A stretch of DNA of 63,628 nucleotides, from assembly GCA_903839975.1 (NCBI GenBank), contig CAIMEH010000002.1, positions 1 through 63,628 on the forward strand, in the 5' to 3' direction. This DNA is from an uncultured Candidatus Berkelbacteria bacterium. GTDB lineage: Bacteria; Patescibacteriota; UBA1384; 2-12-FULL-50-11. A program made the position numbers and the translations under genes. Every line of letters starts with the position of its first letter. Position 1 is the first letter of the stretch. Positions 3,001 to 50,504 of the stretch are shown in pieces. The notes under the pieces were generated by a model that was not told the DNA's origin, made no database searches, and saw only the letters and a list, made by a program, of their open reading frames with translations.

Positions 3001-3924
3001 TTACGAATTTTTGTTTTGGGCTTTGGTAAAGGCCCTATTTTGCCAAATTACGAGCAATGGTGTGGCGGTAAATATCGACGAGTAGGTTCCAATAGCAATT
3101 CCGATCAATAGCGTTACAACGAATGATCTAATACTTTCACCACCAAGCACAGTTAGCGCTAATAGGGTTAAAAGCACGGTCAAACTGGTCGATAGCGATC
3201 TGTTTAGGGTCTCACCTAGGGATTTATCGGCTAACTCTTCAAACTCGGTAGCATTCTGGGAGCGGTTGTGAATTAAGTTCTCCCTTATACGGTCGAAAAC
3301 CACAATAGTATCGTGAACCGAGAAACCCATAACCGTTAGCATGGCGGTAATAAACGAAGAATCTATCTCGTAGTGTAAGAAGTGGGCGAGTATCGTAAAA
3401 GTTCCAACGGTTATAACCAAGTCGTGCAGCAACGCTGCCACGGCCACGGTACCAAATCTCCAGGAAGAAACTGGATGGGAAACTGCCCTAAATGCGTAAG
3501 CCAAATAAAGAATAATCAGGACGGCAGCGATAATAATTGCCTGCACTGCTTTAAAAGTTAAATCTCTTGATACGCTTGGGCCAACTAACTGATACGAAAC
3601 TTCGGTGGTTTTGCCAAAATCGGTATTTAATTCCGTTAGAACTTTTTGATGTTCGTCCTCTGTTATCGGCAAAATTTTTACCAAATATGTTCCCGCTTGG
3701 GTTTTGGATATTACGGCGCCTTTTGCTTCTGGGTATCCCCCAACCTTATCTGCCAAATCAACCTGTTGGACAGGTTTGTCGAATTGTAGTTCTAAGAGCG
3801 CTCCCCCTTTGAAGTCGATTCCAAGTGGCAGCTTCCAAACAATCAATGCAATAATCCCCGGCACCATGATAAGGGCCGAGATTGTTAACCACCAGAATTT
3901 CTTTTTTCCTAAAAATTTTAACAT
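3001..3924 (-). CDS. secF: Protein translocase subunit SecF
   Basis: 307 aa, polytopic, SecF-type sequence, overlaps the secD stop by 1 nt. Confidence 0.9.
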   Translation of the reverse strand: MLKFLGKKKFWWLTISALIMVPGIIALIVWKLPLGIDFKGGALLELQFDKPVQQVDLADKVGGYPEAKGAVISKTQAGTYLVKILPITEDEHQKVLTELNTDFGKTTEVSYQLVGPSVSRDLTFKAVQAIIIAAVLIILYLAYAFRAVSHPVSSWRFGTVAVAALLHDLVITVGTFTILAHFLHYEIDSSFITAMLTVMGFSVHDTIVVFDRIRENLIHNRSQNATEFEELADKSLGETLNRSLSTSLTVLLTLLALTVLGGESIRSFVVTLLIGIAIGTYSSIFTATPLLVIWQNRAFTKAQNKNS

Positions 3925-6296: not shown

Positions 6297-7046
6297 TTAA
6301 ATCGCAATGCCTGTTTTGGCCAGAGCTGATTTTAAGTCTTCTGGTAACGGAGCAGTGTACTCTTTATCCTCAAGTTTGATGTTTGAGGCGTGTAGAAACT
6401 GTCTATTGAGTCCGATATTTTTTGCAATTTCGTCTGTCGCTTTTTCCCCGTAGAGTTTATCCCCAATCAATGGATGGCTAATTGCTTTGAAATGAATTCT
6501 AATCTGGTGTGTTCGGCCGGTAACTGGATGGGCTTCAACCAAACTAACCACAGCACCGGAAAGCTTGTAGCTTTCTGTGCTGGGCTTCGCCTTTGGCTCG
6601 GCTTTTTTACTGTTAACGTGGCCAACTGCTAATAATTTGTAGCGCGTTATTGACGGTCGTGATTTTTGATCATTTAACCAAACAACTTTCATTTTGTCGT
6701 TTTTGTTGTCGCGAGCAATCGATAGCTCGATCTCGCCTTCTTTATTGCACTCCCCTACTACCAAGGCGATGTATATTTTTTCGACCTGTCTCCCCTGCCA
6801 CTCAAGCTTCAGTCTCTCTTGGGCGTCTTTATTCTTGGCCCAAATTGTAACGCCGGAGGTATCGGTGTCTAATCGATGAACAATTCCGTATCTTTCTTCC
6901 TCCTTCCAGTCGCTTTTATTAATATGGCCATTCTCAATTAGCCAATCACGAAGTGTCGCTTCGTGTGATGGTGGCTCGCAAGCCATGCCAGGCGGTTTAT
7001 TGATAACGAAATAGTCAGGCGTTTCTGTAATTATTTCCGGGCTCAT
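6297..7046 (-). CDS. RluA-family pseudouridine synthase
   Basis: HRLDTDTSGV catalytic-Asp motif, 249 aa. A TACAAT box (7054-7059) sits 7 nt upstream of the ATG. Confidence 0.85.
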   Translation of the reverse strand: MSPEIITETPDYFVINKPPGMACEPPSHEATLRDWLIENGHINKSDWKEEERYGIVHRLDTDTSGVTIWAKNKDAQERLKLEWQGRQVEKIYIALVVGECNKEGEIELSIARDNKNDKMKVVWLNDQKSRPSITRYKLLAVGHVNSKKAEPKAKPSTESYKLSGAVVSLVEAHPVTGRTHQIRIHFKAISHPLIGDKLYGEKATDEIAKNIGLNRQFLHASNIKLEDKEYTAPLPEDLKSALAKTGIAI

Positions 7047-7067
7047 TATTTTGATTGTACCTTATAT

Positions 7068-7096
7068 ATAAAGAGATAGGGCCCCGAAGGGCCCCT
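7068..7096 (-). terminator. Intrinsic-terminator-like hairpin with a cUUCGg tetraloop
   Basis: The minus strand reads ggggcccuucggggcccu followed by aucucuuuauauau. Confidence 0.6.
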
Positions 7097-7316
7097 TTAT
7101 GTTCGATGGGTATTTATGTGATGATAGCTGCCCGTTAACGGGCAGGAGGCTTTCCGGCCTCACCTTTGTGTTTTCCCCGATTCCCTTTTTCGAGCGGAAT
7201 GGGCAGCACTAGGGGTATTTTGCCCCCGTATGTTTTTTGCTTTTCCCGAGGCATCCCTCAGGCAGCGCCGCTCTCGGCGGCATTTTTTCTCTGTGTCGCC
7301 GAAGAACATTCGGTAA
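7075..7316 (-). ncRNA. Candidate structured RNA 2 (unknown family)
   Basis: Minus-strand TTGATA (7347-7352), N18, ATTATA (7323-7328) promoter. At least six consecutive hairpins follow. It ends in a GGGCC-C(UUCG)G-GGCCC hairpin (7079-7095) followed by a U-rich tract. No ORF of 60 aa or more. Confidence 0.4.
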
Positions 7317-7377
7317 CATCTGTATAATGCCATAAATCTGAAATATTATCAATACTTTTAGCGGCTATTTCTAGGTT

Positions 7378-7404
7378 AAAAAAACCGCAGGACGTCTCCT
7401 ACGG
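7378..7404 (-). terminator. Rho-independent terminator
   Basis: The minus strand reads ccguagg-agacgu-ccugcgg followed by uuuuuuu. Confidence 0.7.
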
Positions 7405-7659
7405 TTGTTGCCAAGCTCTAACTCGAAAGTTGCTCGTCAGCTGTCTTGGTCTGGACATGGCTCGCGGTCGAGGTCTTACGACGTCGGCGCGGGCATTCTC
7501 TTTAGTTTTGCCCTAATCTCGTTCGGTATTTGCGATAAGGCGGCTCGCTATACCTAGGACTCTTCGTCCGTGCCACAACATCTGGCGGTGTGGGGATGCC
7601 TTCCCTGTTCAAGCTAACTGCTTTCGCAGTATCTAGTTTCCCGGGATCGGAAACATGAT
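7380..7659 (-). ncRNA. Candidate structured RNA 1 (unknown family)
   Basis: Bounded by a consensus promoter (7666-7694) and a hairpin plus U7 terminator (7378-7404). Only the minus-strand reading gives the GAAA (GNRA) and UUCG tetraloops and a G-U pair, which becomes a C-A mismatch on the plus strand. Confidence 0.45.
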
Positions 7660-7665
7660 GATGAA

Positions 7666-7694
7666 ATAGTACCACTTTCCTGCTATCTTGTCAA
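7666..7694 (-). promoter_or_regulatory. Sigma70-like promoter, TTGACA-N17-TACTAT
   Basis: The reverse complement of 7666-7694 is ttgacaagatagcaggaaagtggtactat. It points into the gene-free region. Confidence 0.65.
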
Positions 7695-7701
7695 TACATT
7701 C

Positions 7702-10650
7702 ATGCAGGATTTTTTGAAAGTAAAAAAACTATTAAATAAACAACAGCTGGAAGCCGTCGAGTCCATCGAAGGCCCAGTAATGGTTTTGGCAGGGCCAGGT
7801 ACTGGCAAGACTCAGGTTGTGGCGGTTCGTATCGCCGAGATTCTGCAAAATACTCAAATATCCCCACGCAATATTTTGGCTCTAACTTTTACCGAAGCCG
7901 GTGTTACGGCTTTGCGTTCGCGCTTGGAGTCGATAATAGGCCCGGACGCCTACCAAGTTACAATTGCTACTTTTCACGGCTTTGCCAACGAGATTATCGG
8001 CACATTCCCCTATCTCTTTAATTTCGATGATAAAGCGGCACAGATTGCCGAGCTTGATCGTTTTATGTTGTTGGAAAAAATTGTTTCTGAGTTGCCAGAT
8101 ATAAAACTGCTCCGACCGCTTAAAGTTCCGATGACACACATAAAAGCTATCGGCGATTCGATAAAGACTTGTAAGCAGGAAGCTATCTCTCCTGACGATT
8201 TGCGCAAACTTTCCAAGAAACAAATTGCCGATGTAAATAAGCAAGAAAAAAATTCCAAGGCCGAAAAAGAAAAGATAATTAATTTCTCCGAAAAGAATAT
8301 TGAGTTGGCGGATATCTACGAAAAATATCAGGAAGATTTAACAAAAACCCAGCGCTACGACTACGAAGATATGATTTTGTTAGTCGTCGATGCCACGCAG
8401 AACAACGAGGAGCTTCGACTCCACTACCAGGAACGTTACCAATATATTTTGGTTGATGAGTATCAAGACACAAATAACGGTCAGAACTCTTTAGTTGAAG
8501 TCTTGGCTAGTTTTTTTGAAAATCCAAACTTGTTTGTGGTTGGCGATGACAAGCAAGCAATCTTCCGTTTCCAGGGAGCGTCGGTAGCTAATATGCTTCA
8601 CTTCGTCAAAAAATTCCCTGATATTAAGATTGTCTCGCTGAAAGATAATTACCGCAGCTGTCCGGAAATACTATCGACTGCTGGTGAATTAATTAAAAAT
8701 AATACCCATCAAATTTGCGCCTATTTGGATGGAGTTAACGGCGATTTATCCGCCGTTACTGATTCCTGTGGCAAGCCGCAGCAAGTTAACTTACCGACAA
8801 AATTAAGCCAGTATGGCTGGATTATTGATGAAATTAAAAAGCTTACAAAAGCAGGCGCAACTCTTGAAAATATCGCAGTATTATTTCGGGTTAACAACGA
8901 CGTTCGCGAGTTTCGTTCGCTAGCGGAAAAAAGCGGTTTAATGGTCAGTGGCGCCTTAACTTCCAATTTAATATTTGAGCCGGAAATACAATTATTAATT
9001 ACAATCCTCCACGCCATCGATAAACCTCTTTACGATATGTACACAATTCCAACTTTACGAGCTTTAAGCGACGCTCCCGAGCTAATCGATCTGCTGGAAA
9101 TTATGCATACAAAAAAACGTGGCGAAAAATTAATTCCGGAATTACTAAAAAGCCAAAATAGGGCATTAGCAGCAACAGCTGCTAATCAAATTATTAGCCT
9201 CCATAAGACTGCCCAGAAATCTTCGCTTACGGAATTGTTTGAAATAATAATTGACAGCACTACAATTCTTGATCAAGTTCGGCTGCGACCAAACCATCTT
9301 GAGGGTTTGGAATTTATCTCCGCATTTCTAGATGAAGCAAAACGATTTTCTATGCGTCGCCCAGCCGCCAAGCTCAATGACTTCTTAGAGTATTTGGAGT
9401 TATTAAATCGTTACAATATCCAAATTCCAATTAACCGTGTCTTGCCGGAACGTGAAGGTGTCTTTGTCTCCACCGTTCATGGCGCTAAGGGCCTAGAGTT
9501 CGAAACTGTTTTTATGCCAAATACCGACGAGAAAAACTGGAACGAGCGCAAAAGTCGTTCCGTTATTAAATTACCTAGTGCAATTGTCGACCTACGAGAC
9601 TGGAACGACGATCCAGCCGAAGATGATCGCCGAGTATTCTATGTTGGCCTTACTCGGGCAAAGAAGAATCTTTATTTAACGATGTCGGATACCAATGGCG
9701 ACGGCAAAGAGCTTCTTCCTTGCCGATTCATCTCGGAGATTAGCGAAACGCTGGATAAAAAAGTGGTAAAAGTCACAGCCGCCCAGGCAGAAAAACAATA
9801 TCAAAAAGTTTTGACCCCGGTCCCCTCTTCCGCTATTGCTAAGCGCGAACTGGAATATATTTGTGAGCGGGTTAAAAATATTCCGTTCTCTTACAGCGCA
9901 CTTAAAACTTATAAACAGTGTCCGAAACAATATTTATTAAAATATATATTTAACCTGCCGACCGAGCCCACAATTCCGTTGGTCTATGGTAGTGCTGTTC
10001 ACCGAGCTTTGGAATTATTCTTCCGGGCATTTAAAGCAAAGAAATATTTACCGAACAAGAACGAACTACTGGATTATTTCCGCCTGGCTTTGAATCAGCA
10101 ACCTTACGTCGAACAAAAAGAAGGAGTACTTTCTCAAGGGCTTTTAGTACTTTCGGCCTATTACGATTTAAACAAAGAAAAATGGCAGATTCCTGTTGAG
10201 GTTGAATCTTTACTTACCGGCCACAAAATAATGCTTGGAGACGCTTGGCTAACCGGTAAATTCGACCGGGTGGATGTAATAGATCCACAAACAAAATCTG
10301 TTCGCTTAGTTGACTATAAAACTGTTTCTAAACTACCAAGCATGAACGAGATAGTCGGTAATACCAAAAATAGTGACGGCGACTACAAAACGCAGCTTGT
10401 CTTCTACTCACTTCTAACTGAGCTTGATCCCCTATTTCCTTATCGTGCCACAGAATTCTCGCTAGATTTTATCGGCGATAAACTGGAATTCAAAACAGAA
10501 ACATTGCTAGTCTCCCGTGAAGAGCGCGAAGAATTAAAGAAAGAAATTGAAATAGTTTTCAAAGAAATCTTAGAACGAAAAAGTTTTCCACACACTCGCG
10601 ACGAGTTCGACCACGGCTGCGAAGTTTGTGCAGCCTTCCCAAGTCTTTAA
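7702..10650 (+). CDS. UvrD/PcrA-type helicase fused to a C-terminal PD-(D/E)XK (Cas4/AddB-like) nuclease domain
   Basis: N-terminal AGPGTGKT Walker A and VDEYQDTN motif. C-terminal DRVD...VDYKT nuclease motif, plus Cys at YKQCPKQY and a terminal HGCEVCA (4-Cys arrangement). Confidence 0.8.
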   Translation: MQDFLKVKKLLNKQQLEAVESIEGPVMVLAGPGTGKTQVVAVRIAEILQNTQISPRNILALTFTEAGVTALRSRLESIIGPDAYQVTIATFHGFANEIIGTFPYLFNFDDKAAQIAELDRFMLLEKIVSELPDIKLLRPLKVPMTHIKAIGDSIKTCKQEAISPDDLRKLSKKQIADVNKQEKNSKAEKEKIINFSEKNIELADIYEKYQEDLTKTQRYDYEDMILLVVDATQNNEELRLHYQERYQYILVDEYQDTNNGQNSLVEVLASFFENPNLFVVGDDKQAIFRFQGASVANMLHFVKKFPDIKIVSLKDNYRSCPEILSTAGELIKNNTHQICAYLDGVNGDLSAVTDSCGKPQQVNLPTKLSQYGWIIDEIKKLTKAGATLENIAVLFRVNNDVREFRSLAEKSGLMVSGALTSNLIFEPEIQLLITILHAIDKPLYDMYTIPTLRALSDAPELIDLLEIMHTKKRGEKLIPELLKSQNRALAATAANQIISLHKTAQKSSLTELFEIIIDSTTILDQVRLRPNHLEGLEFISAFLDEAKRFSMRRPAAKLNDFLEYLELLNRYNIQIPINRVLPEREGVFVSTVHGAKGLEFETVFMPNTDEKNWNERKSRSVIKLPSAIVDLRDWNDDPAEDDRRVFYVGLTRAKKNLYLTMSDTNGDGKELLPCRFISEISETLDKKVVKVTAAQAEKQYQKVLTPVPSSAIAKRELEYICERVKNIPFSYSALKTYKQCPKQYLLKYIFNLPTEPTIPLVYGSAVHRALELFFRAFKAKKYLPNKNELLDYFRLALNQQPYVEQKEGVLSQGLLVLSAYYDLNKEKWQIPVEVESLLTGHKIMLGDAWLTGKFDRVDVIDPQTKSVRLVDYKTVSKLPSMNEIVGNTKNSDGDYKTQLVFYSLLTELDPLFPYRATEFSLDFIGDKLEFKTETLLVSREEREELKKEIEIVFKEILERKSFPHTRDEFDHGCEVCAAFPSL

Positions 10651-22743: not shown

Positions 22744-24110
22744 ATGGGATTGTCCCGAACCAGCTGCCGAGCGATCTCGGCGGCTTTTTCTTTATCGTCT
22801 TCCTTTAATTCTCCGTCCAAAACCATTTCCAATAATTTCTCTTTTATTGGTTTAATCCATGCGCCGGCTGGACGGTGAAACATCTCCATTAGCTCCTCAC
22901 CAGATAGCGGCGATTTTATTTTGGCGATCTCGGCTTCCTCTTCGAGCTTGGCAATACGTTCTTTCAGTTTGTCGCGGCCAGCTTTATATTTGGCTAGTTT
23001 AACCTGGTTGCCGCCGGTAGAGTCGGCTTCGGCGAAAGCAAATAAATCATCCAAGGTTTCGCCGGCGTCTCGAACAAAGCGACGTACCGCACCGTCGGTC
23101 CATAAGCCATCATCGTTTGGAATTCTTTGATGCAGATAAACTAGTTTTGAGACATAATCGACGAACTCGTTAGAGTATTTTAGTCGTCGCAAAACGTTTT
23201 TAGCGGTTCGGGAGCCAACGTTCTCGTGGCCTAAAAAGTGCCACTCGTTGCCAACTCGTCGTCTGGTTTGTGGTTTAGCAATATCGTGAAGCAAGGCGCA
23301 CCACCTCAGCTCAATTATGGGTGGTGTTTGGTCTAGAACCTGCAAAATGTGGTGATAGATATCTTTATGTTGGTGGGCTTCGAATTCAATATTTATTGAC
23401 GGCAAAAGCTCGGGCAGAATGTAGTTTATTAAGCCGGTTTCGACCATGACTTCAATGGCCCTACTAGGTTTACTGGCGAGTAAAATTTTATCCATCTCCC
23501 CCGCTACCCGCTCGGACGATAATATAGCAAATCGTTCTTTCTCAACTTTAATTCCGCCAAGTGTTTCTGGTTCGATCTCAAAATTTAACTGCACCATAAA
23601 ACGAATAGCACGGAGCATTCTTAGCGGGTCTTCATTGAACCTGTCTCTGGCATCGCCGACGCTGCGGATAATTTTATCTTCAATATCGCCTTGGCCGTCG
23701 TAAGGATCGATAAGTTTATTTTTTTCCAAATCGTAAGCGATAGCGTTAACGGTAAAATCGCGTCGTGCCAGATCTTCTTCTAAACTACTGCCAAATTCCA
23801 CTATCGGTTTTCTGGAATCTATGGAATAGTCCTCACTTCGATAAGTGGTTACTTCGATTGGCTCACTGTTAAATTCGCCGGTTATGGTTCCAAAGCGTTT
23901 ACCGATTGTACCGATTTTTTTACAGCCAAAACTGCGAATTATTTGCTCAATTTTATCTGGCCGGGCATTAGTAGTTAAATCCCATTCCTTTACCGGCAAG
24001 TTCAATAATTGGTTTCTGATGGCGCCACCAACTATAGATAGCTCGAAGCCACTTTCCTTAAAGTCTTCACCAAGTTTTTTCAGCCATTCTGGAATATTTA
24101 AGTTGGCCAT
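22734..24110 (-). CDS. cca: CCA-adding tRNA nucleotidyltransferase with HD domain
   Basis: PolyA_pol head domain (GGAIRNQLL...DLTT) plus an HD region (LLHDIAKP). Confidence 0.8.
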   Translation of the reverse strand: MANLNIPEWLKKLGEDFKESGFELSIVGGAIRNQLLNLPVKEWDLTTNARPDKIEQIIRSFGCKKIGTIGKRFGTITGEFNSEPIEVTTYRSEDYSIDSRKPIVEFGSSLEEDLARRDFTVNAIAYDLEKNKLIDPYDGQGDIEDKIIRSVGDARDRFNEDPLRMLRAIRFMVQLNFEIEPETLGGIKVEKERFAILSSERVAGEMDKILLASKPSRAIEVMVETGLINYILPELLPSINIEFEAHQHKDIYHHILQVLDQTPPIIELRWCALLHDIAKPQTRRRVGNEWHFLGHENVGSRTAKNVLRRLKYSNEFVDYVSKLVYLHQRIPNDDGLWTDGAVRRFVRDAGETLDDLFAFAEADSTGGNQVKLAKYKAGRDKLKERIAKLEEEAEIAKIKSPLSGEELMEMFHRPAGAWIKPIKEKLLEMVLDGELKEDDKEKAAEIARQLVRDNPIQT

Positions 24111-24137
24111 TTGCCAAAATTTTACCAGTAATACCGG

Positions 24138-26787: not shown

Positions 26788-27060
26788 TTAGATTTCGGGA
26801 ATTGACTGCCAATCTTCGGAGTCTTTCTCAGGTTCGTCGTGGGTTATCTCTTCCTTTGCTATGACTGGTGGCTTGATTTCTTTATCCTGACCATCCATCC
26901 GCAAGACAATTCTTTTTCGTTTTCGGTCGAATTCTAGCTGAACCAAATCGCCTTGCTTTACGCCGATTTCAGTTAGCCATTTTTTTGGGGGCAATAAGGC
27001 CAGAGAGTACTTCCCAAACAAAAACAGTTTGCGTTTATCTATTCTGGCCATGTTTGACAT
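26788..27060 (-). CDS. AbrB/MazE/SpoVT-like small DNA-binding protein with an acidic tail
   Basis: The segment LALLPPKKWLTEIGVKQGDLVQLEFDRKRKRIVLRM resembles a swapped-hairpin AbrB fold. Confidence 0.5.
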   Translation of the reverse strand: MSNMARIDKRKLFLFGKYSLALLPPKKWLTEIGVKQGDLVQLEFDRKRKRIVLRMDGQDKEIKPPVIAKEEITHDEPEKDSEDWQSIPEI

Positions 27061-27152
27061 ATATCATACCTCGAGTAGAAAAAACAAGAGAAAGAATTTT
27101 AAAATATCAAAAAAGTATTGACCTATGTTATAAAATAGAGCAAAATATACGC

Positions 27153-31565: not shown

Positions 31566-31840
31566 TGCCAATGCCATCAACATCGAGATCGGAAGCTTCA
31601 CATCGAGCGGTGCGCTTAACGCATCGTGAGATTGAAGTTTTGAGCCTAATAGCTCAAGGACATAGCAGTAAAGAGGCTGCCGAAAGTCTATATGTGTCTA
31701 AACGCACAGTCGATTTTCACCTTGCAAATTTGTATGACAAACTGCAGGTGAATAACAGGGTTCAGGCTTTCCGCGCGGCAACGCGCCTTGGCTTGATTCC
31801 GTTCGAACCGTCTTTCGGTTACGCTCGCGGCGAGTCGTAA
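31565..31840 (+). CDS. Stand-alone LuxR/GerE-type HTH transcription regulator (91 aa)
   Basis: LTHREIEVLSLIAQGHSSKEAAESLYVSKRTVDFHLANLYDKL is a canonical LuxR C-terminal HTH. AGGAGG lies 9 nt upstream. Confidence 0.8.
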   Translation: MPMPSTSRSEASHRAVRLTHREIEVLSLIAQGHSSKEAAESLYVSKRTVDFHLANLYDKLQVNNRVQAFRAATRLGLIPFEPSFGYARGES

Positions 31841-31911
31841 CCAGCCCAATCAAAGGGCATTCATTTTCTACAACGGCGTAGATAGGTGGATGCCCTTTTT
31901 CTGTATACGAG

Positions 31912-31939
31912 AAAAGCCTCGGCGATTGCCGAGGCTTTT
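31912..31939. terminator. Bidirectional terminator hairpin
   Basis: aaaagcctcggc-gatt-gccgaggctttt. Confidence 0.75.
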
Positions 31940-31962
31940 GAGATTGGAGCCCCACACTCCGA

Positions 31963-31989
31963 GGGCTGGAGGCGGGGCTTTGGGGAGGG
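31963..31989 (+). other. G-quadruplex-type motif
   Basis: GGGctggaggcGGGGctttGGGGaGGG on the plus strand, just downstream of the minus-strand ORF 32003-32257. Confidence 0.4.
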
Positions 31990-32002
31990 AGGAAAGAAAC
32001 CG

Positions 32003-32257
32003 CTAGCTGTGCATTTTGCGCAGCTGTTTAATGTTTCGTCGTCGATTTGCTCGACGAGCTTTCTCATCTTGTTTGACTACGAAGCCGTAAAGCATCGAAG
32101 CCAGCGCGATGAAGAAGCAGGCGAACTGGGCGTCCGGGTTCTCCTTGACGTAGTCAAGTTGAATCTCAGTGAATCCGTAGGTTATCCCTAAGTAGAGATA
32201 AATTGCGAAAACGGCCAATGCGACGGCAAAAAAGAAACGAGAATTTAATCTCTTCAT
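32003..32257 (-). CDS. Small 2-TM membrane protein with a basic C-terminus
   Basis: Two hydrophobic helices, 84 aa, no recognisable family. Confidence 0.45.
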   Translation of the reverse strand: MKRLNSRFFFAVALAVFAIYLYLGITYGFTEIQLDYVKENPDAQFACFFIALASMLYGFVVKQDEKARRANRRRNIKQLRKMHS

Positions 32258-32357
32258 ATCTTCTGTACTCCTGTAATGTGCTTTCCCACAAATCCGTGTG
32301 GGACGAGAAAACTATACCAGAAAGGCCTAGAAAAGTCAAGGACTTAGAGGGTAATAG

Positions 32358-39411: not shown

Positions 39412-39583
39412 GGTAACTTCTTAATAACATATTATGGGTTTTCTGGCAGAAAAACCGCGGCTCGAACCTTTAATAAATTCTTATACGAGTCGTGTATCTT
39501 TCTTACCATATTGAGGTCATTCTAACAGTATCCAAAATCTAGGCAACTCCCCTACTATTGGCACTTGTTGTATACTACGGCTA

Positions 39584-40297
39584 ATGCACAAAAAACGGGA
39601 AAAGATCGCCAGCTATATCATTAGTGTCTTGGCGATTACTGCTTTTGTTCTAATAGCTTTCTATGCTTTGGTCTGGGCCAACGGTCTTAAAATAGACTTT
39701 AACAATGGCACTATCGTAAAAACAGCGATGATCGCCATTGAGCCAACGATTAAAGACGCAACGATATTGTTAAACGGTGAAACAGTCGGCAGTAGCACTC
39801 CTCTTCAAGAACGGAACCTCGCAGCTGGACGTTATAGCGTAGTTATAAAAAAAGTTGGTTATCTCGATTACAATAACGTTTTCACGCTTGCCACCGGACA
39901 GGTTGGAATCGTAAATTCTGACGTCGTTTTACTGGCGAGTAATCCTACAATTGAAAAGAATATTCCTTCGCTCTTTTACCACACAATGGATCCGTACGAT
40001 GTTGGTATCTCAATAAGTAATGGCGAGATATTTGATAACGGCAGTTTAATTACACGATTGTCTGGCACGCCATCACAGGTTCATCGGTTGAACGCTGGCT
40101 ATGTTTACCAGCTAGGCGACCAAGTTAGATTGTATCTACCACCTAACAATCAGGATGTTTTGGTTTTCTCTTTACCAAACGACGAGCAGGCAAAAATAAA
40201 CTTAGATTATTCCAACTGGCAGGTAATTGTTTTCGATAAAACTGGAGCAACTACCGTAATTCATCTGCTTGAACCGAGCGCTTCTACGACTAGCTAA
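39584..40297 (+). CDS. PEGA-domain protein with an N-terminal TM anchor
   Basis: GRYSVVIKKVGYLDY is a PEGA-like motif. TATACT lies 7 nt before the ATG. Confidence 0.6.
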   Translation: MHKKREKIASYIISVLAITAFVLIAFYALVWANGLKIDFNNGTIVKTAMIAIEPTIKDATILLNGETVGSSTPLQERNLAAGRYSVVIKKVGYLDYNNVFTLATGQVGIVNSDVVLLASNPTIEKNIPSLFYHTMDPYDVGISISNGEIFDNGSLITRLSGTPSQVHRLNAGYVYQLGDQVRLYLPPNNQDVLVFSLPNDEQAKINLDYSNWQVIVFDKTGATTVIHLLEPSASTTS

Positions 40298-45173: not shown

Positions 45174-45216
45174 TATAAGTTGTGAAAGTTGCGTATCTCT
45201 GTGGTACGATATTTGT

Positions 45217-45909
45217 ATGAGCAATTCAGCTTTAAGGCAAGAAGCTAGAGACCTTCGAGCCAAAGGCCTGACCTATGATGAGATAAAGAAAACAATAGGC
45301 CTTAGCATCCCAAAGAGTACGCTATCTACTTGGTGTAGTGGCATAAAGTTGTCTCAAAATCAGGCCAAAAGAATAGCAAATATCTCAAAACAAAGGCTTG
45401 TACGAGCTCAGCAACTCGCAGTTTCAGCTAATAAGCAAAAACGAGAGGAATATTTTTCTGCTATTGAACGAAAATATACTGGAATCGAGAAGGCTATTGT
45501 GAGCGATCGCAAGAATATTTTAATTGCGTTGGCCCTGCTTTATCTTGCCGAAGGTTCTAAGGGGTCTGTGAGTAGGCTTACTTTCGGTAACTCAGATCCA
45601 AAGATTATAGCTCTTTACCTTGCCTTGCTAAGACGAGCATATGAAATTGACGAATTAAAATTTCGCTGCACGCTTCAATGTCGGGCTGATCAAAATATTA
45701 CACAACTCCAAAGTTTTTGGTCGGAGTGTACGGGAATACCGCTAATAAAATTTTACAAGGCACGAATTGACCCACGAAGCATAGGAAAAAGAACAGAAAA
45801 AACCGACTACAAAGGAGTTTGTCGTATAGATTATTTCTCTGCAAATATATATAATGAGTTACAAGTAATCGCAAAAATTATTACAAATGGGCCGTTAGCT
45901 CAGCGGTAG
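45217..45909 (+). CDS. HTH plus LAGLIDADG-like homing-endonuclease-type protein
   Basis: N-terminal resolvase-like HTH (GLTYDEIKKTIGLSIPKSTLSTW). Degenerate LAGLIDADG-like ALLYLAEGSKGS followed by FGNSDP...FW...GIP. The last 21 nt overlap tRNA-Ala(GGC). Confidence 0.5.
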   Translation: MSNSALRQEARDLRAKGLTYDEIKKTIGLSIPKSTLSTWCSGIKLSQNQAKRIANISKQRLVRAQQLAVSANKQKREEYFSAIERKYTGIEKAIVSDRKNILIALALLYLAEGSKGSVSRLTFGNSDPKIIALYLALLRRAYEIDELKFRCTLQCRADQNITQLQSFWSECTGIPLIKFYKARIDPRSIGKRTEKTDYKGVCRIDYFSANIYNELQVIAKIITNGPLAQR

Positions 45910-46579: not shown

Positions 46580-47638
46580 ATGCCTGAAAACGAAGGTTCG
46601 AAAAAAGTAATTGCCGAATACATTTGGATCGACGGCGCCAAGCCAACTGCAAAATTGCGCTCTAAGCCAAAAGTTTTAGATAACCCAGTAAAGAGTCTCG
46701 AAGATATCCCATGGTGGGGCTTTGATGGCTCATCTACTCAGCAGGCCGAGGGTCATTTCAGTGACTGTCTATTAAAACCAGTTCGCTACATGCCAGATCC
46801 AATTAAGGGCGGTGAAAATATCGTCGTGCTTTGCGAAGTTATGAATGCCGACAAAACACCACACGCCACCAATACTCGAGCAGTCTTGGCAGCCAACGTC
46901 GAGAAATTTGCCAAAGAAGACCCATGGTTTGGAATTGAGCAGGAATACACCTTCATGCAGAATGGCCGTCCATACGGTTGGCCAGAAGAAGGTTTTCCAC
47001 CAGATCAGGGACCTTACTACTGCGGTGTCGGCGCTGATGTCGCCTACGGCCGAGATTTATTCGACGAGCAGATTCAGCTTGGTCTAGATGCCGGCTTGGC
47101 AATCTCCGGTGGTAACGCCGAAGTTATGCCAGCTCAGTGGGAATTTCAGCTTGATCCACTACCAGCTCTTGAGCAGGCAGACCAGCTTTGGTTGGGTCGC
47201 TGGCTCTTAATTCGCTTGGGTGAAGATTACGGAATTACTGTTAGCTTTGAACCAAAACCAGTTCTCGGCGATTGGAACGGCGCTGGTGGTCACACAAACT
47301 TTTCCACTAAAGCTATGCGTGAAGACGGCGGCTTGAAGGTAATCGAGGAAGCTTGTGCAAAACTTGAGAAACGCCACATGCAACACATTAAAGTCTACGG
47401 CGCCAATAACGAACTACGCCTAACCGGTAAGCACGAAACTTGCAGCATCAATGAATTCCGATGGGGTAAGGGCGACCGCGGCGCGTCTGTCCGTGTCTCG
47501 CTGCCAGTTGTTGCCAAAGGCAAAGGACATATGGAAGATCGTCGTCCAGCTGCCAATCTTGATCCATACCAGGTTCTAACAGCCATTCTGGAAACGGTCT
47601 GTGGCGATGGTTTCGACCCAGAAAAATACAAGTGGTAA
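46580..47638 (+). CDS. glnII: Type II (eukaryote-like) glutamine synthetase
   Basis: N-terminal VIAEYIWIDG...LRSK and a 352-aa length are typical of GSII. The start was trimmed to ATG 46580, preceded by AAAGGAG. Confidence 0.8.
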   Translation: MPENEGSKKVIAEYIWIDGAKPTAKLRSKPKVLDNPVKSLEDIPWWGFDGSSTQQAEGHFSDCLLKPVRYMPDPIKGGENIVVLCEVMNADKTPHATNTRAVLAANVEKFAKEDPWFGIEQEYTFMQNGRPYGWPEEGFPPDQGPYYCGVGADVAYGRDLFDEQIQLGLDAGLAISGGNAEVMPAQWEFQLDPLPALEQADQLWLGRWLLIRLGEDYGITVSFEPKPVLGDWNGAGGHTNFSTKAMREDGGLKVIEEACAKLEKRHMQHIKVYGANNELRLTGKHETCSINEFRWGKGDRGASVRVSLPVVAKGKGHMEDRRPAANLDPYQVLTAILETVCGDGFDPEKYKW

Positions 47639-47656
47639 AAATTCGACAGAGTAAAG

Positions 47657-47681
47657 AAAACCGGCCATCTTGGCCGGTTTT
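47657..47681. terminator. Terminator hairpin
   Basis: aaaaccggcca-tct-tggccggtttt. Confidence 0.8.
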
Positions 47682-47695
47682 CTGATTATTGTTCA

Positions 47696-47724
47696 AAAAC
47701 AAAATGCCCACTAACGGGCATTTT
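47696..47724. terminator. Terminator hairpin
   Basis: aaaaatgccc-actaac-gggcatttt. Confidence 0.75.
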
Positions 47725-47751
47725 GTCTACAAATTATAATTCGTAAGAACC

Positions 47752-47982
47752 TTACATTGAGGTCGAGGTGCTGCCGTCTTTCTTCATAAATACTGTGAAG
47801 AGTGACCAGATAGCCGCCAAACCAACCAAGGCGTAAATAATGCGTGGCAAAGTTGCTGCTGGGTCGCCACTACCAAACCACTTGGCGACGAAGTCGTACT
47901 TGAAGAAACCAACCGAACCCCAGTTCAAGCCACCAACGAACAGCAAGATCCATACGAGCCAATCCATTGCGCTCATTTTCAT
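47752..47982 (-). CDS. DUF378 small membrane protein
   Basis: The LVWILLFVGGLNWG pattern is typical of DUF378. ATG 47982 is preferred because GGAGG lies 8 nt upstream. Confidence 0.7.
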   Translation of the reverse strand: MKMSAMDWLVWILLFVGGLNWGSVGFFKYDFVAKWFGSGDPAATLPRIIYALVGLAAIWSLFTVFMKKDGSTSTSM

Positions 47983-48125
47983 CTGTCTCACCTCCTCTCC
48001 TAAAAGTTATGTACTTAACATTAGTATTGTCTCTTGTTGTTGAATTCGCAAGGTCTGTCAAGGGGTTCCCAATCCTAAATACTAAACTCTAGCGGATATG
48101 GTTAAAGAGTAATACAATTGAGCAA

Positions 48126-50504
48126 ATGTCTAAGAGTATTTACGACCACGCCGAGATAGAGAAAAAATGGGCCAAAAAGTGGCAAGACGAACGTCTATAC
48201 GACGTTGATTTGTCGGCAAGTGAAAGCAAATATTACTGCTTGGATATGTTCCCTTACCCTTCTGGAACCGGTCTTCATGTCGGTCACTGGCGCGGCTATG
48301 TTTTGAGCGATTTCTATGCTCGTTACGCTAGATTACACGGCAAAAATGTTTTACACCCAATGGGTTACGACTCTTTTGGTTTGCCGGCAGAGCGTGCTGC
48401 AATTAAATACAAATCACACCCAAAGAAATTTACCGACGAGGCAATTGAAAACTACACCCGCCAATTAAAAGAAGTAGCTGCTTCGTACGACTGGACAAAA
48501 GAACTCTCAACATCTGACCCAAAATACTATCGCTGGACACAGTGGCTATTCTTGCAACTTTTTAAACATGACCTAGCTGAGAAACGCGTTTCGCTAGTTA
48601 ACTGGTGTCCTAACGACCAGACGGTTTTAGCTAACGAACAGGTTGTGAACGGCTGCTGTGAGCGCTGCGGTGCTGCCGTTACCAAAAAAGAATTAGCCCA
48701 GTGGTTTCTAAAAACAACCGAATTTTCCCAAGAATTATTAGATGGCCTTAACGAAGTTGATTGGCCAGACCGAGTAAAACTACTCCAGCGGGACTGGATC
48801 GGCCGCAGTGAAGGCGCGTCAGTTAAATTTACAACAGAAAAAGGTGAAGTTGAAGTATTCACCACCCGACCAGACACACTTTTTGGTGTTACCGCCCTAG
48901 TTCTATCGCCAGAGCATCCGCTCGTTGTCGAGTTAACTACTAGTGACCAAAAAGCTGAGGTAGAAAAATACGTTAAAGAAGTTCAGTCAAAAACCGATAT
49001 TATTCGTCAACAAAATTGGGATAAAGAAAAATCCGCTGTCTTTACTGGCTCATATGCCAAACACCCGCTGACAAACGAAGACATTCCAGTTTGGATCGCC
49101 GACTATGTTTTGATGAGCTACGGTACTGGTGCAGTAATGTCCGTTCCGGCTCACGACGAACGTGATTATTTATTTGCCAAGGCTTACGACCTACCTATTA
49201 CACAGGTTATTACCGGCAGCGAAGAGCTGCCATTTGTCGATGACGGTAAATTAATTAATTCCGGCGAATATAACGACCTAGATTCCAAAACCGGCGCGGA
49301 AAAAATTACTGAGAAATTAAAATCTATCGGCAAAGGCGAAAAGAAAACAACTTTTCGTTTACGTGACTGGCTAGTTTCCCGTCAGCGATACTGGGGTGCC
49401 CCGATTCCAATTGTTTACGATCCAGATGGCAAGCCGCACGCCGTTAAAGAAGAACACCTGCCGTTACTTTTGCCTGAAGACGTCGATTTCTTGCCGGGTG
49501 GCGAAAGCCCAGTCGCCCGTTCAGCTGAGTATAAAGAACGTGCCGAAAAACTTTATGGCAAGGGCTGGTATTTTGATACCGACACTCTAGATACTTTTGT
49601 AGATTCTTCATGGTACTTTTTACGCTATCTCTCCCCTACCGACGACACTCAGGCCTTCAATAAAGAGTTGGTTAGTAAATGGTTGCCTGTGGATCTTTAT
49701 ATTGGTGGAATTGAACACGCTACTGGCCACTTAATGTACTCACGTTTTATTACCAAATTCTTGGCAAAATTCGGATATATCTCCAAGGATATAAACGAAC
49801 CATTTAAGCAATTGTTTAACATAGGTGCAATTACAATGCATGGCGCCAAGATGAGCAAGAGCAAAGGAAATGTTGTCTCGCCTGACTTATTAATTGAACA
49901 CTACGGTACTGACGCTCTGCGCGGTTTTGAATTGTTTGTTGGCCCAATGGAAGTTGAGGCCGAGTGGAATAATCACGGTATGAACGGTATTCACCGATTC
50001 CTAATTAAATTAAACAATATATTCTTAGATTCTATTGGCAATTATGGCAAAGATGATCTGGGGAATGAATTTAGCTCTTATTTTGGGAAAGTCGAAGAAA
50101 TGGCAAAAAACTTCCGTACCAACACAATAATTGCTGAATATATGAAATTCCTAACCATTCTGGAGGCCAAAAAGCCAAGCCAGAAAGTTTTAGAGGACTT
50201 TCTAATTACCCTATCCCCTGTATATCCGTTTATTGCCGAGGAGTTATGGGAGAAAATGGGTCATGCCGAGAGTATTTTTAAGGCTAGCTGGCCAGAAGTA
50301 AAAGAGTTCAAACAAATTCCAGAGCTAAAAGTGATGGTTGATCAGAAATTTGTAGTATTTTTGCAGACCGAAGAAACTGATGAGCAAAAAGTTGTTGAAA
50401 TGGCTAAAGCTCTACCCGAAGTGGCTAAAAAGCTCGAAAACAAGGAAATTATTAAATCTATTTATCGTCAGGGACAGTTGATTAACTTCTTGGTTAAGGG
50501 GTAG
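48126..50504 (+). CDS. leuS: Leucyl-tRNA synthetase
   Basis: HVGH (HIGH-type) and KMSKS motifs, 792 aa. TACAAT lies 7 nt before the ATG. Confidence 0.95.
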   Translation: MSKSIYDHAEIEKKWAKKWQDERLYDVDLSASESKYYCLDMFPYPSGTGLHVGHWRGYVLSDFYARYARLHGKNVLHPMGYDSFGLPAERAAIKYKSHPKKFTDEAIENYTRQLKEVAASYDWTKELSTSDPKYYRWTQWLFLQLFKHDLAEKRVSLVNWCPNDQTVLANEQVVNGCCERCGAAVTKKELAQWFLKTTEFSQELLDGLNEVDWPDRVKLLQRDWIGRSEGASVKFTTEKGEVEVFTTRPDTLFGVTALVLSPEHPLVVELTTSDQKAEVEKYVKEVQSKTDIIRQQNWDKEKSAVFTGSYAKHPLTNEDIPVWIADYVLMSYGTGAVMSVPAHDERDYLFAKAYDLPITQVITGSEELPFVDDGKLINSGEYNDLDSKTGAEKITEKLKSIGKGEKKTTFRLRDWLVSRQRYWGAPIPIVYDPDGKPHAVKEEHLPLLLPEDVDFLPGGESPVARSAEYKERAEKLYGKGWYFDTDTLDTFVDSSWYFLRYLSPTDDTQAFNKELVSKWLPVDLYIGGIEHATGHLMYSRFITKFLAKFGYISKDINEPFKQLFNIGAITMHGAKMSKSKGNVVSPDLLIEHYGTDALRGFELFVGPMEVEAEWNNHGMNGIHRFLIKLNNIFLDSIGNYGKDDLGNEFSSYFGKVEEMAKNFRTNTIIAEYMKFLTILEAKKPSQKVLEDFLITLSPVYPFIAEELWEKMGHAESIFKASWPEVKEFKQIPELKVMVDQKFVVFLQTEETDEQKVVEMAKALPEVAKKLENKEIIKSIYRQGQLINFLVKG

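Follow-up and report, generated by a model that had tools for sequence, protein, structure and literature searches.

Two predicted structured small RNAs in a high-turnover slot between divergent rluA and helicase genes

The gap between rluA and the helicase gene

A gene for an RluA-family pseudouridine synthase (rluA) and a gene for a UvrD/PcrA-like helicase with a C-terminal PD-(D/E)XK nuclease domain diverge from a 655-bp gap (positions 7047-7701), the largest gene-free stretch of the window, by which we mean the whole 63,628-nt stretch of DNA analyzed here (contig CAIMEH010000002.1). The guanine-plus-cytosine (GC) content of the gap is 0.485, with local peaks of 0.54-0.55, compared to 0.44 for the whole window and 0.37-0.43 for other gaps without transfer RNA (tRNA) genes. 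The longest open reading frames (ORFs) inside it are 57 amino acids (aa) in length, and a Pfam scan of its six-frame translations matched no family. An earlier reading of the bare sequence, called the original prediction below, had described the gap as the largest noncoding stretch, as richer in GC than its surroundings, and as free of ORFs of 60 aa or more, and these descriptions were all confirmed. It had also proposed two tandem RNA genes on the minus strand. We give somewhat better than even chances to a related reading, according to which two structured small RNAs (sRNAs), each specific to the lineage and transcribed independently, are encoded on the minus strand of the gap, in a slot that recurs among relatives and has a high turnover.

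The genes and predicted features of the locus are as follows.

6297-7046, minus strand: rluA, the RluA-family pseudouridine synthase gene, flanking the gap
7054-7061, minus strand: -10 box of rluA, GGTACAAT, 7 nt before the ATG (7046-7044)
7064-7095, minus strand: T2, hairpin GGGGCCC-UUCG-GGGCCCU (7095-7078) followed by a U-rich stretch, adjoining the rluA -10 box on its upstream side
7068-7317, minus strand: predicted sRNA-2 (unit 2), about 250 nt, about eight short GC-rich hairpins joined by A-rich linkers
7324-7352, minus strand: P2, promoter-like site TTGATA (7352-7347)-17-TG-n-CATTAT (7332-7324), 9/12 matches, TG present, lying within an AT-rich spacer between the units
7376-7406, minus strand: T1, intrinsic terminator, 10-bp stem 7406-7383 with one U-G pair, U7 at 7382-7376
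7376-7659, minus strand: predicted sRNA-1 (unit 1), about 284 nt, 5' hairpin, GAAA-loop hairpin, multibranch core, terminator
7666-7673, minus strand: extended -10 element of P1, GGTACTAT, hexamer TACTAT at 7671-7666, 17-nt spacer, 10/12 matches with TG
7689-7694, minus strand: -35 hexamer of P1, TTGACA, 8 nt from the helicase start codon of the opposite strand
7702-10650, plus strand: UvrD/PcrA-like helicase gene with C-terminal PD-(D/E)XK nuclease domain, flanking the gap and divergent from rluA

Scanning both strands from 6800 to 7950 for transcription signals returned five promoter-like sites where 1.3 were expected, all five on the minus strand, and nine terminator-like hairpins against an expectation of 1.4. 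For unit 1, the scan reproduced the anatomy of the original prediction: a TTGACA-N17-TACTAT promoter, about 280 nt of sequence, and a clean terminator with U7. P1 aligns with the promoter of the closest relative (L055; relatives are given here by such numbers), and the start of sRNA-1 was placed about 7 nt after the -10 box. T1 folds at -15.7 kcal/mol (z = -5.4) with a T run on the minus strand only, and the G-U pair noted earlier in the 7378-7404 stem is present as the one U-G pair of T1. For unit 2, the second promoter and the end hairpin beside the rluA -10 box were both recovered, with the promoter re-read as TTGATA-17-CATTAT rather than N18-ATTATA. A second promoter at the relative position of P2 is also present in L205, and the T2 hairpin (-15.5 kcal/mol) occupies a position equivalent to that of the terminators in relatives. 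Judged by sequence, the two units have the attributes of stand-alone sRNA genes, with promoters of their own (10/12 and 9/12 matches), intrinsic terminators, and no coding potential.

Two other views of the setting were rejected. The gap is not a pseudogene remnant, as the six-frame Pfam scan was empty and no relative has a gene at this position, and it is not part of a defense system, as the helicase matches generic UvrD-type models only and its neighbors are housekeeping genes.

Folding and searches for known RNA families

Relative to dinucleotide shuffles, unit 1 folded with z = -3.5 on the minus strand versus -2.0 on the plus strand, and unit 2 with z = -4.5 on both strands. Among 488 test windows of 260 nt (244 start positions, both strands, across the whole window), 7060-7319 had the most extreme fold z-score. 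Perfect hairpins with a stem of at least 6 bp number only two in the gap, and what is in excess is the overall folding energy and the number of terminator-like hairpins; the earlier description of the locus as hairpin-dense therefore did not hold for strictly perfect hairpins, which are not exceptionally dense. Other structural details of the original prediction survived in part. Its GAAA hairpin is present, at 7617-7630 rather than about 7623-7636, and UUCG loops occur in T2 and in unit 1 (7420-7431), whereas the UUCG in CCGAAUGUUCUUCGG is part of a stem. Its assignment of both units to the minus strand, argued from loop and pairing chemistry, is backed by fold energy for unit 1 but not for unit 2. 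Unit 1 is the better supported of the two because of its consensus promoter, strong terminator, and strand-asymmetric fold. For unit 2, the sequence offers P2 as the sole guide to strand, since fold energy does not discriminate.

It is accordingly conceivable, though we think it quite unlikely, that unit 2 acts on the plus strand, either as an sRNA ending at a GCCGCUCUCGGCGGC-U6 terminator (7267-7287) or as an array of terminators that would block antisense transcription from reaching the helicase gene. Four plus-strand hairpins in unit 2 are followed by T-rich runs (7079, 7146, 7212, and 7267), folding on the plus strand equals or surpasses that on the minus strand, and the best Rfam alignment in the gap, still below threshold, lies on the plus strand. 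That strand, however, has no promoter-like site between 6800 and 7950 and no plus-strand gene within 4.7 kb upstream. The corresponding segments of relatives are oriented toward rluA, and substitutions between two of them (L147 and L168, described below) preserve G-U pairing in a way that fits the rluA-sense strand.

Inside sRNA-2 there is a perfect 18-bp palindrome, CTGCCCGTTAACGGGCAG, at 7128-7145, and a third half-site, AATGGGCAGC, lies 61 nt away (7198-7207). Either 7198-7207 or 7137-7145 is able to pair with 7127-7136, and the palindrome and half-site could serve as an alternative RNA pairing or as a DNA operator. The idea that unit 2 arose as a duplicate of the rluA start region was rejected, the alignment not being significant.

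Rfam 15 at gathering thresholds found three tRNAs in the whole window and nothing in the gap, and a permissive E-value scan (E up to 10) of 6950-7800 gave only noise, with a best score of 22 bits against a threshold of 50. The Rfam scan of the gap that the original prediction had proposed thus yielded no confident housekeeping RNA match, and its failure to find the hallmarks of several families by eye agreed with the models. No covariance match to RNase P RNA was found at E up to 10; the gap contains only a weak look-alike, GAAGAGUCC, of the 5' strand of P4 (GGAAAGUCCGG), with no 3' partner ACAGAAxCCGGCUUA. Transfer-messenger RNA (tmRNA) was absent according to both Rfam and ARAGORN, which reported only the three tRNAs in the window. 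Signal recognition particle (SRP) RNA was matched in neither Rfam scan, and the E-value scan gave no T-box or riboswitch match. The 6S RNA model (RF00013) had no match at E up to 10, and a 6S-like rod with a central bubble was not seen in the predicted minimum-energy or centroid folds, which make unit 1 multibranch and unit 2 a string of hairpins. Rfam E-value scans of nine related loci gave no credible match either.

A highly divergent RNase P RNA, 6S RNA, SRP RNA, or tmRNA missed by the models is the least probable explanation we considered. The size range fits, the resemblance of GAAGAGUCC to the P4 5' strand is there, and 6S RNAs are notoriously variable in sequence. Against this stand Rfam scans that, even with permissive filters and E up to 10, gave no match in the gap or in the nine related loci, the negative ARAGORN result, and predicted folds that are multibranch or hairpin strings rather than a 6S-like rod. 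A housekeeping RNA, moreover, would not be absent from three lineages, nor would it be unrelated between genomes whose rluA proteins are 80% identical.

Short ORFs follow the promoter in some loci. An AUG lies 9 to 10 nt after the -10 box in the window (7654-7656, opening a 7-aa ORF, MFPIPGN) and in L056 (2747-2749), and the ORFs after the -10 boxes of L056 and L058 start with MLIF and MLIL, differ in length, and are not conserved as ORFs; these short ORFs are probably incidental. We consider it highly improbable that the units are instead tandem structured mRNAs for small proteins or type I toxin-antitoxin modules. Type I loci do resemble the gap in having tandem units in an intergenic slot with strong promoters and terminators and poor conservation, and short ORFs exist, from the 7-aa ORF 9 nt after the P1 -10 box to ORFs of 37-57 aa. 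However, a search of the gap for type I features found neither a hydrophobic toxin ORF nor an antisense promoter, and it has no transmembrane-like peptide, no Shine-Dalgarno sequence at proper spacing, and no Pfam match. The 57-aa ORFs start upstream of the predicted transcription starts, and insertions and deletions between the L056 and L058 segments are not multiples of 3.

Two other stretches of the window with strong folds were considered as RNA loci and found to be explained by small ORFs and ordinary terminators (near 47620 and 31760). The second-largest apparent gap, 47639-48125, has a very strong fold z-score and is not gene-free: it contains a 79-aa ORF for a DUF378 membrane protein (47752-47991, minus strand, with a GGAGG site) and a terminator with a 13-bp stem (47655-47683). 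The stretch at 31840-32340 (z of about -6) has two plus-strand terminators after a gene for a GerE/LuxR-type regulator, along with a small minus-strand ORF driven by a TTGACT-17-TATAGT promoter (32339-32311). A 101-aa ORF at 31886-32191 has no Pfam match and may not be real.

The slot in related lineages

Relatives of the rluA protein are annotated as Candidatus Saccharimonadales or Patescibacteria, the best nonself match being 80% identical. The locus was retrieved from 15 other lineages; three scans of the genome collection returned few Saccharimonadales, and a search for closer relatives by the helicase N terminus found nothing above 60% identity. The divergent helicase/rluA pair is conserved in nearly all 15 lineages (L164 has a different upstream neighbor), and 11 of them (L055, L056/L057, L058, L059, L060, L061, L198, L147/L168, L161, L166, and L205) share one design between the two genes, which we call a cassette. 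Reading toward rluA, this consists of the helicase start codon, a sigma-70 promoter (TTGACA and/or a GGTAnnAT-type extended -10), a GC-rich and hairpin-rich segment of 110-300 nt, an intrinsic terminator with a T run, and a TAnnnT hexamer. The segments have a GC content of 0.48-0.58, and the folds of most are significantly stronger than those of shuffled sequences. L205, whose rluA is 52% identical to that of the window, has two tandem units with promoters of 11/12 and 10/12 matches and two terminators. In L199-L201 there is no cassette, with 0-60 nt between the genes. The two-unit minus-strand anatomy of the original prediction is therefore matched by the signals in the gap and by the similar layout of L205, but not by conservation of the bodies, meaning the transcribed segments themselves.

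Two incidental features of these loci deserve mention. The rluA call of L058 (3001-3813; 270 aa, GTG start) is overextended through the cassette terminator, the conserved N terminus starting from the ATG at 3110. A short conserved element containing CCAAG adjoins the helicase start in the distant lineages L147, L161, L166, and L199-L201 (for example, GTyAGCTTAaCTGGTTTT...GGCCAAG) and is possibly a helicase promoter or 5' untranslated region (UTR) on the opposite strand.

What is conserved across lineages is the slot and the cassette design, not the body. No similarity between the bodies of different lineages was detected by blastn with word size 7, and blastn of the window RNAs against all cassette loci gave matches at the promoter and the rluA start only. 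When unit 1 (R1) and unit 2 (R2) were each turned into a single-sequence covariance model and run against 19 loci, the models returned self-matches only. Exact 24-mer and 28-mer probes of the window RNAs had no match in the JGI metagenomes or the GTDB genomes, metagenomes likewise contained no match to a probe for the L056-type 5' end, and distant blastn against phage and plasmid collections was negative. A miniature inverted-repeat transposable element (MITE) or repetitive extragenic palindrome (REP) would be present in multiple copies, but within the 63 kb of genome checked there was no second copy of the cassette. The comparison with relatives that the original prediction had called for thus showed no sequence or structure conservation of the window's two RNAs.

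Candidate shared motifs fared no better. YAUAAR was dropped as a recurring motif after enumeration against shuffled controls, and so was the idea of a mimic of ribosomal RNA (rRNA) helix 69, suggested by an L055 hairpin loop, ACUAUAACG, that resembles the RluD substrate loop. The L055 hairpin (83-107, CAAGCC-ACUAUAACGUCAC-GGCUUG) has a 9-nt match to the helix-69 loop of 23S rRNA, which is modified by RluD-type enzymes, and it lies upstream of an RluA-family gene. No other lineage showed this match, and statistics do not support it as a shared motif.

Where sister lineages share a body, it is strongly conserved. The L147 and L168 bodies are 98.1% identical (5 differences in 261 nt), compared to 85-86% identity for third codon positions in the helicase and rluA genes on either side and 93% at all flanking coding sites (Fisher p = 0.001 for the latter). 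None of the five substitutions breaks a predicted pair: three fall at positions predicted to be unpaired, and two change A-U to G-U or U-G to C-G, which keeps the pairing only on the rluA-sense strand. Between L056 and L058, the body is 80% identical versus 50-52% at third codon positions, the terminator stem carries compensatory changes, and the insertions and deletions, as noted, break any reading frame. Because identity in both sister pairs is far above that at synonymous sites, purifying selection acts on the bodies within a lineage, whether as RNA or at the least as noncoding sequence.

These data bear on the alternative that the gap is nonfunctional spacer DNA, inserted or expanded, in which the signals are incidental or only separate divergent promoters and any RNA is a by-product. 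Consistent with this alternative, the gap shows no conservation with its nearest relative, cassette length varies from 0 to 655 bp with three lineages lacking a cassette altogether, and neither a shared motif nor a homologue in the searched collections was found. We nevertheless regard it as unlikely, though it may hold for the window's own sequences. Against it, the sister pairs conserve their cassettes far better than their synonymous sites, the gap surpasses other intergenic DNA in GC content and fold stability, and near-consensus promoters with strong terminators recur in 12 loci. In addition, Saccharibacteria, like other bacteria of the candidate phyla radiation (CPR), have tiny, streamlined genomes with about 94% coding sequence (10.1101/2022.03.25.485537), in which 655 bp of junk would be unusual.

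The relatives also clarify how rluA may be expressed. In 16/16 lineages inspected, the rluA ATG is preceded at 6-9 nt by a TAnnnT hexamer. Its counterpart in the window belongs to a motif, GGTAnnAT, that occurs 35 times there, 14 of them intergenic though intergenic DNA makes up about 10% of the sequence, and that often stands 6-9 nt before an ATG, rluA included. By established geometry, transcription starts about 7 nt after a -10 box, and rluA, we infer, has a promoter of its own that yields a leaderless mRNA. If it is leaderless with its own -10 box, the units upstream would be separate transcription units rather than a required 5' UTR, and the cassette terminators would therefore also insulate the rluA promoter. 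At many other genes of the window, a -10-like box, often GGTAnnAT, stands just 6-9 nt ahead of the ATG and a Shine-Dalgarno sequence is lacking (for example, at 45203-45219, 27060-27070, 24110-24126, 39570-39586, and 48112-48128), which suggests that leaderless mRNAs are common in the source organism; other genes carry classic GGAGG sites.

Could the units still be a cis-regulatory leader? Transcripts from P1 and P2 would then form a long structured 5' UTR of rluA, with T1 and T2 as conditional attenuators that respond to, for example, a protein or the state of RNA modification. In favor of this, P1 and P2 are both directed at rluA, T2 abuts that gene and its U tract is weak, and an alternative pairing exists, of 7198-7207 or 7137-7145 with 7127-7136. 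In lineages without a cassette, moreover, no more than about 60 nt separate the rluA promoter from the helicase start codon, so that this promoter takes roughly the place of P1. Such a leader seems to us distinctly unlikely, however, given the separate -10 box that each of the 16 lineages has 6-9 nt ahead of the rluA ATG, the lack of a Shine-Dalgarno sequence at normal spacing in a read-through mRNA, and a strong terminator at T1 followed by a fresh promoter. Leaders that sense ligands or proteins are also normally conserved, whereas the cassette bodies are unrelated between lineages, and no riboswitch or T-box was matched.

Interpretation and comparison with known systems

Our favored reading of the gap, as two separate sRNA genes, would work as follows. 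P1, a sigma-70 promoter of consensus type abutting the helicase start codon, would drive sRNA-1 (about 284 nt) to T1; after a 60-nt AT-rich spacer, P2, of the extended -10 type, would drive sRNA-2 (about 250 nt) to T2. The rluA gene would be transcribed separately and without a leader, with T1 and T2 shielding its promoter from read-through. Across Saccharimonadales, the number of cassettes in the slot, each made up of a promoter, a structured RNA, and a terminator, would be zero, one, or two, and their bodies would be kept by purifying selection within a lineage and replaced wholesale between lineages. The transcription of the two RNAs, their ends, and their action in trans are deduced from sequence, and promoter quality would predict the strong expression envisaged in the original prediction. 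Our best guess is that they are lineage-specific regulatory RNAs that act by base pairing or protein binding.

Several observations weigh against this reading. P2 is weaker than P1 and has a C at its first -10 position, the U tract of T2 is weak, and unit 2 folds equally well on the plus strand, where its four hairpins precede T runs. When duplexes with 65 start regions were folded to predict targets, nothing rose above the null, and no seed or target was identified. The closest relative, L055, has an unrelated cassette body even though its rluA is 80% identical (third codon positions, 55%), the two loci sharing sequence only at the promoter and the rluA start. As the window and L055 diverged about as much as L056 and L058, the body was either replaced or evolved far faster in the window or in L055. 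No search found a homologue of either window RNA, and across lineages motif enumeration against shuffled controls left only the terminator T tract in common. Selection on the bodies was seen for the cassettes of other lineages and not for the window's two RNAs, and the three lineages without a cassette indicate that it is dispensable.

A bolder possibility, which we consider improbable, is that the helicase/rluA site of Saccharimonadales is a dedicated hotspot where unrelated, strongly promoted structured RNAs are repeatedly installed, one at a time or in tandem, and then come under purifying selection. Such a site might represent a noncoding RNA (ncRNA) cassette system of ultrastreamlined episymbiont genomes, mobile or tied to the RNA-modifying enzyme or the helicase-nuclease, and its RNAs might act, for example, as decoys, guides, or regulators. 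The two RNAs of the window would then be founding members of new RNA classes.

If the favored reading of two turnover-prone sRNA genes is correct, a slot with strongly promoted, selectively kept structured ncRNAs in most lineages would offer a testable entry to RNA-based regulation in Saccharibacteria and the CPR; a 2022 transcriptome study reported no validated small RNAs in Saccharibacteria (10.1101/2022.03.25.485537). It would also provide a clean natural example of sRNA gene turnover, in which one RNA body takes the place of another within a lasting promoter/terminator frame and position. Until expression and function are shown, the practical value is modest.

Among known systems, the RNA-polymerase-binding RNAs of the 6S/Ms1 type are abundant, structured, about 180-300 nt long, and very poorly conserved in sequence. 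The predicted RNAs resemble them in structure, in size, and in poor conservation, and differ in having no predicted rod with a central bubble, no Rfam 6S match, and a cassette that is absent from some lineages. Type I loci such as Ibs/Sib, Ldr/Rdl, and Zor/Orz are likewise tandem, strongly promoted, structured, poorly conserved, and found in variable intergenic slots, but the gap lacks a hydrophobic toxin ORF and an antisense promoter, and the related cassette pair has frame-breaking insertions and deletions. Unit 2, as a string of short hairpins with purine-rich linkers, recalls the protein-sequestering RNAs of the CsrB/RsmZ type; however, it has no repeated loop motif, and GGA is not enriched, with 4 and 5 GGA motifs in the two units against 5.5 +/- 1.9 expected.

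The closest likeness is to stand-alone sRNAs, such as the RsaE/RoxS type of Firmicutes and the trans-acting sRNAs of enterobacteria. The window RNAs, with much structure, are longer (250-285 nt) than most of these, exchange of the entire body from lineage to lineage leaves the promoter/terminator frame in place, and no conserved seed, target, or chaperone was identified. Like the known sRNAs, the two units combine a promoter of their own and several stem-loops with a Rho-independent terminator, and neither contains an ORF; their intergenic slot is flanked by conserved genes, their phylogenetic range is narrow and their turnover quick, and the single-stranded stretch before the terminator tends weakly to be poor in G (0.18 versus 0.26 G, p = 0.03). 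The predicted RNAs would thus be orphan members of the well-known stand-alone bacterial sRNA genes rather than a new kind of system, and what they would add is the slot itself: a fixed promoter/terminator frame that holds zero, one, or two unrelated bodies across Saccharimonadales.

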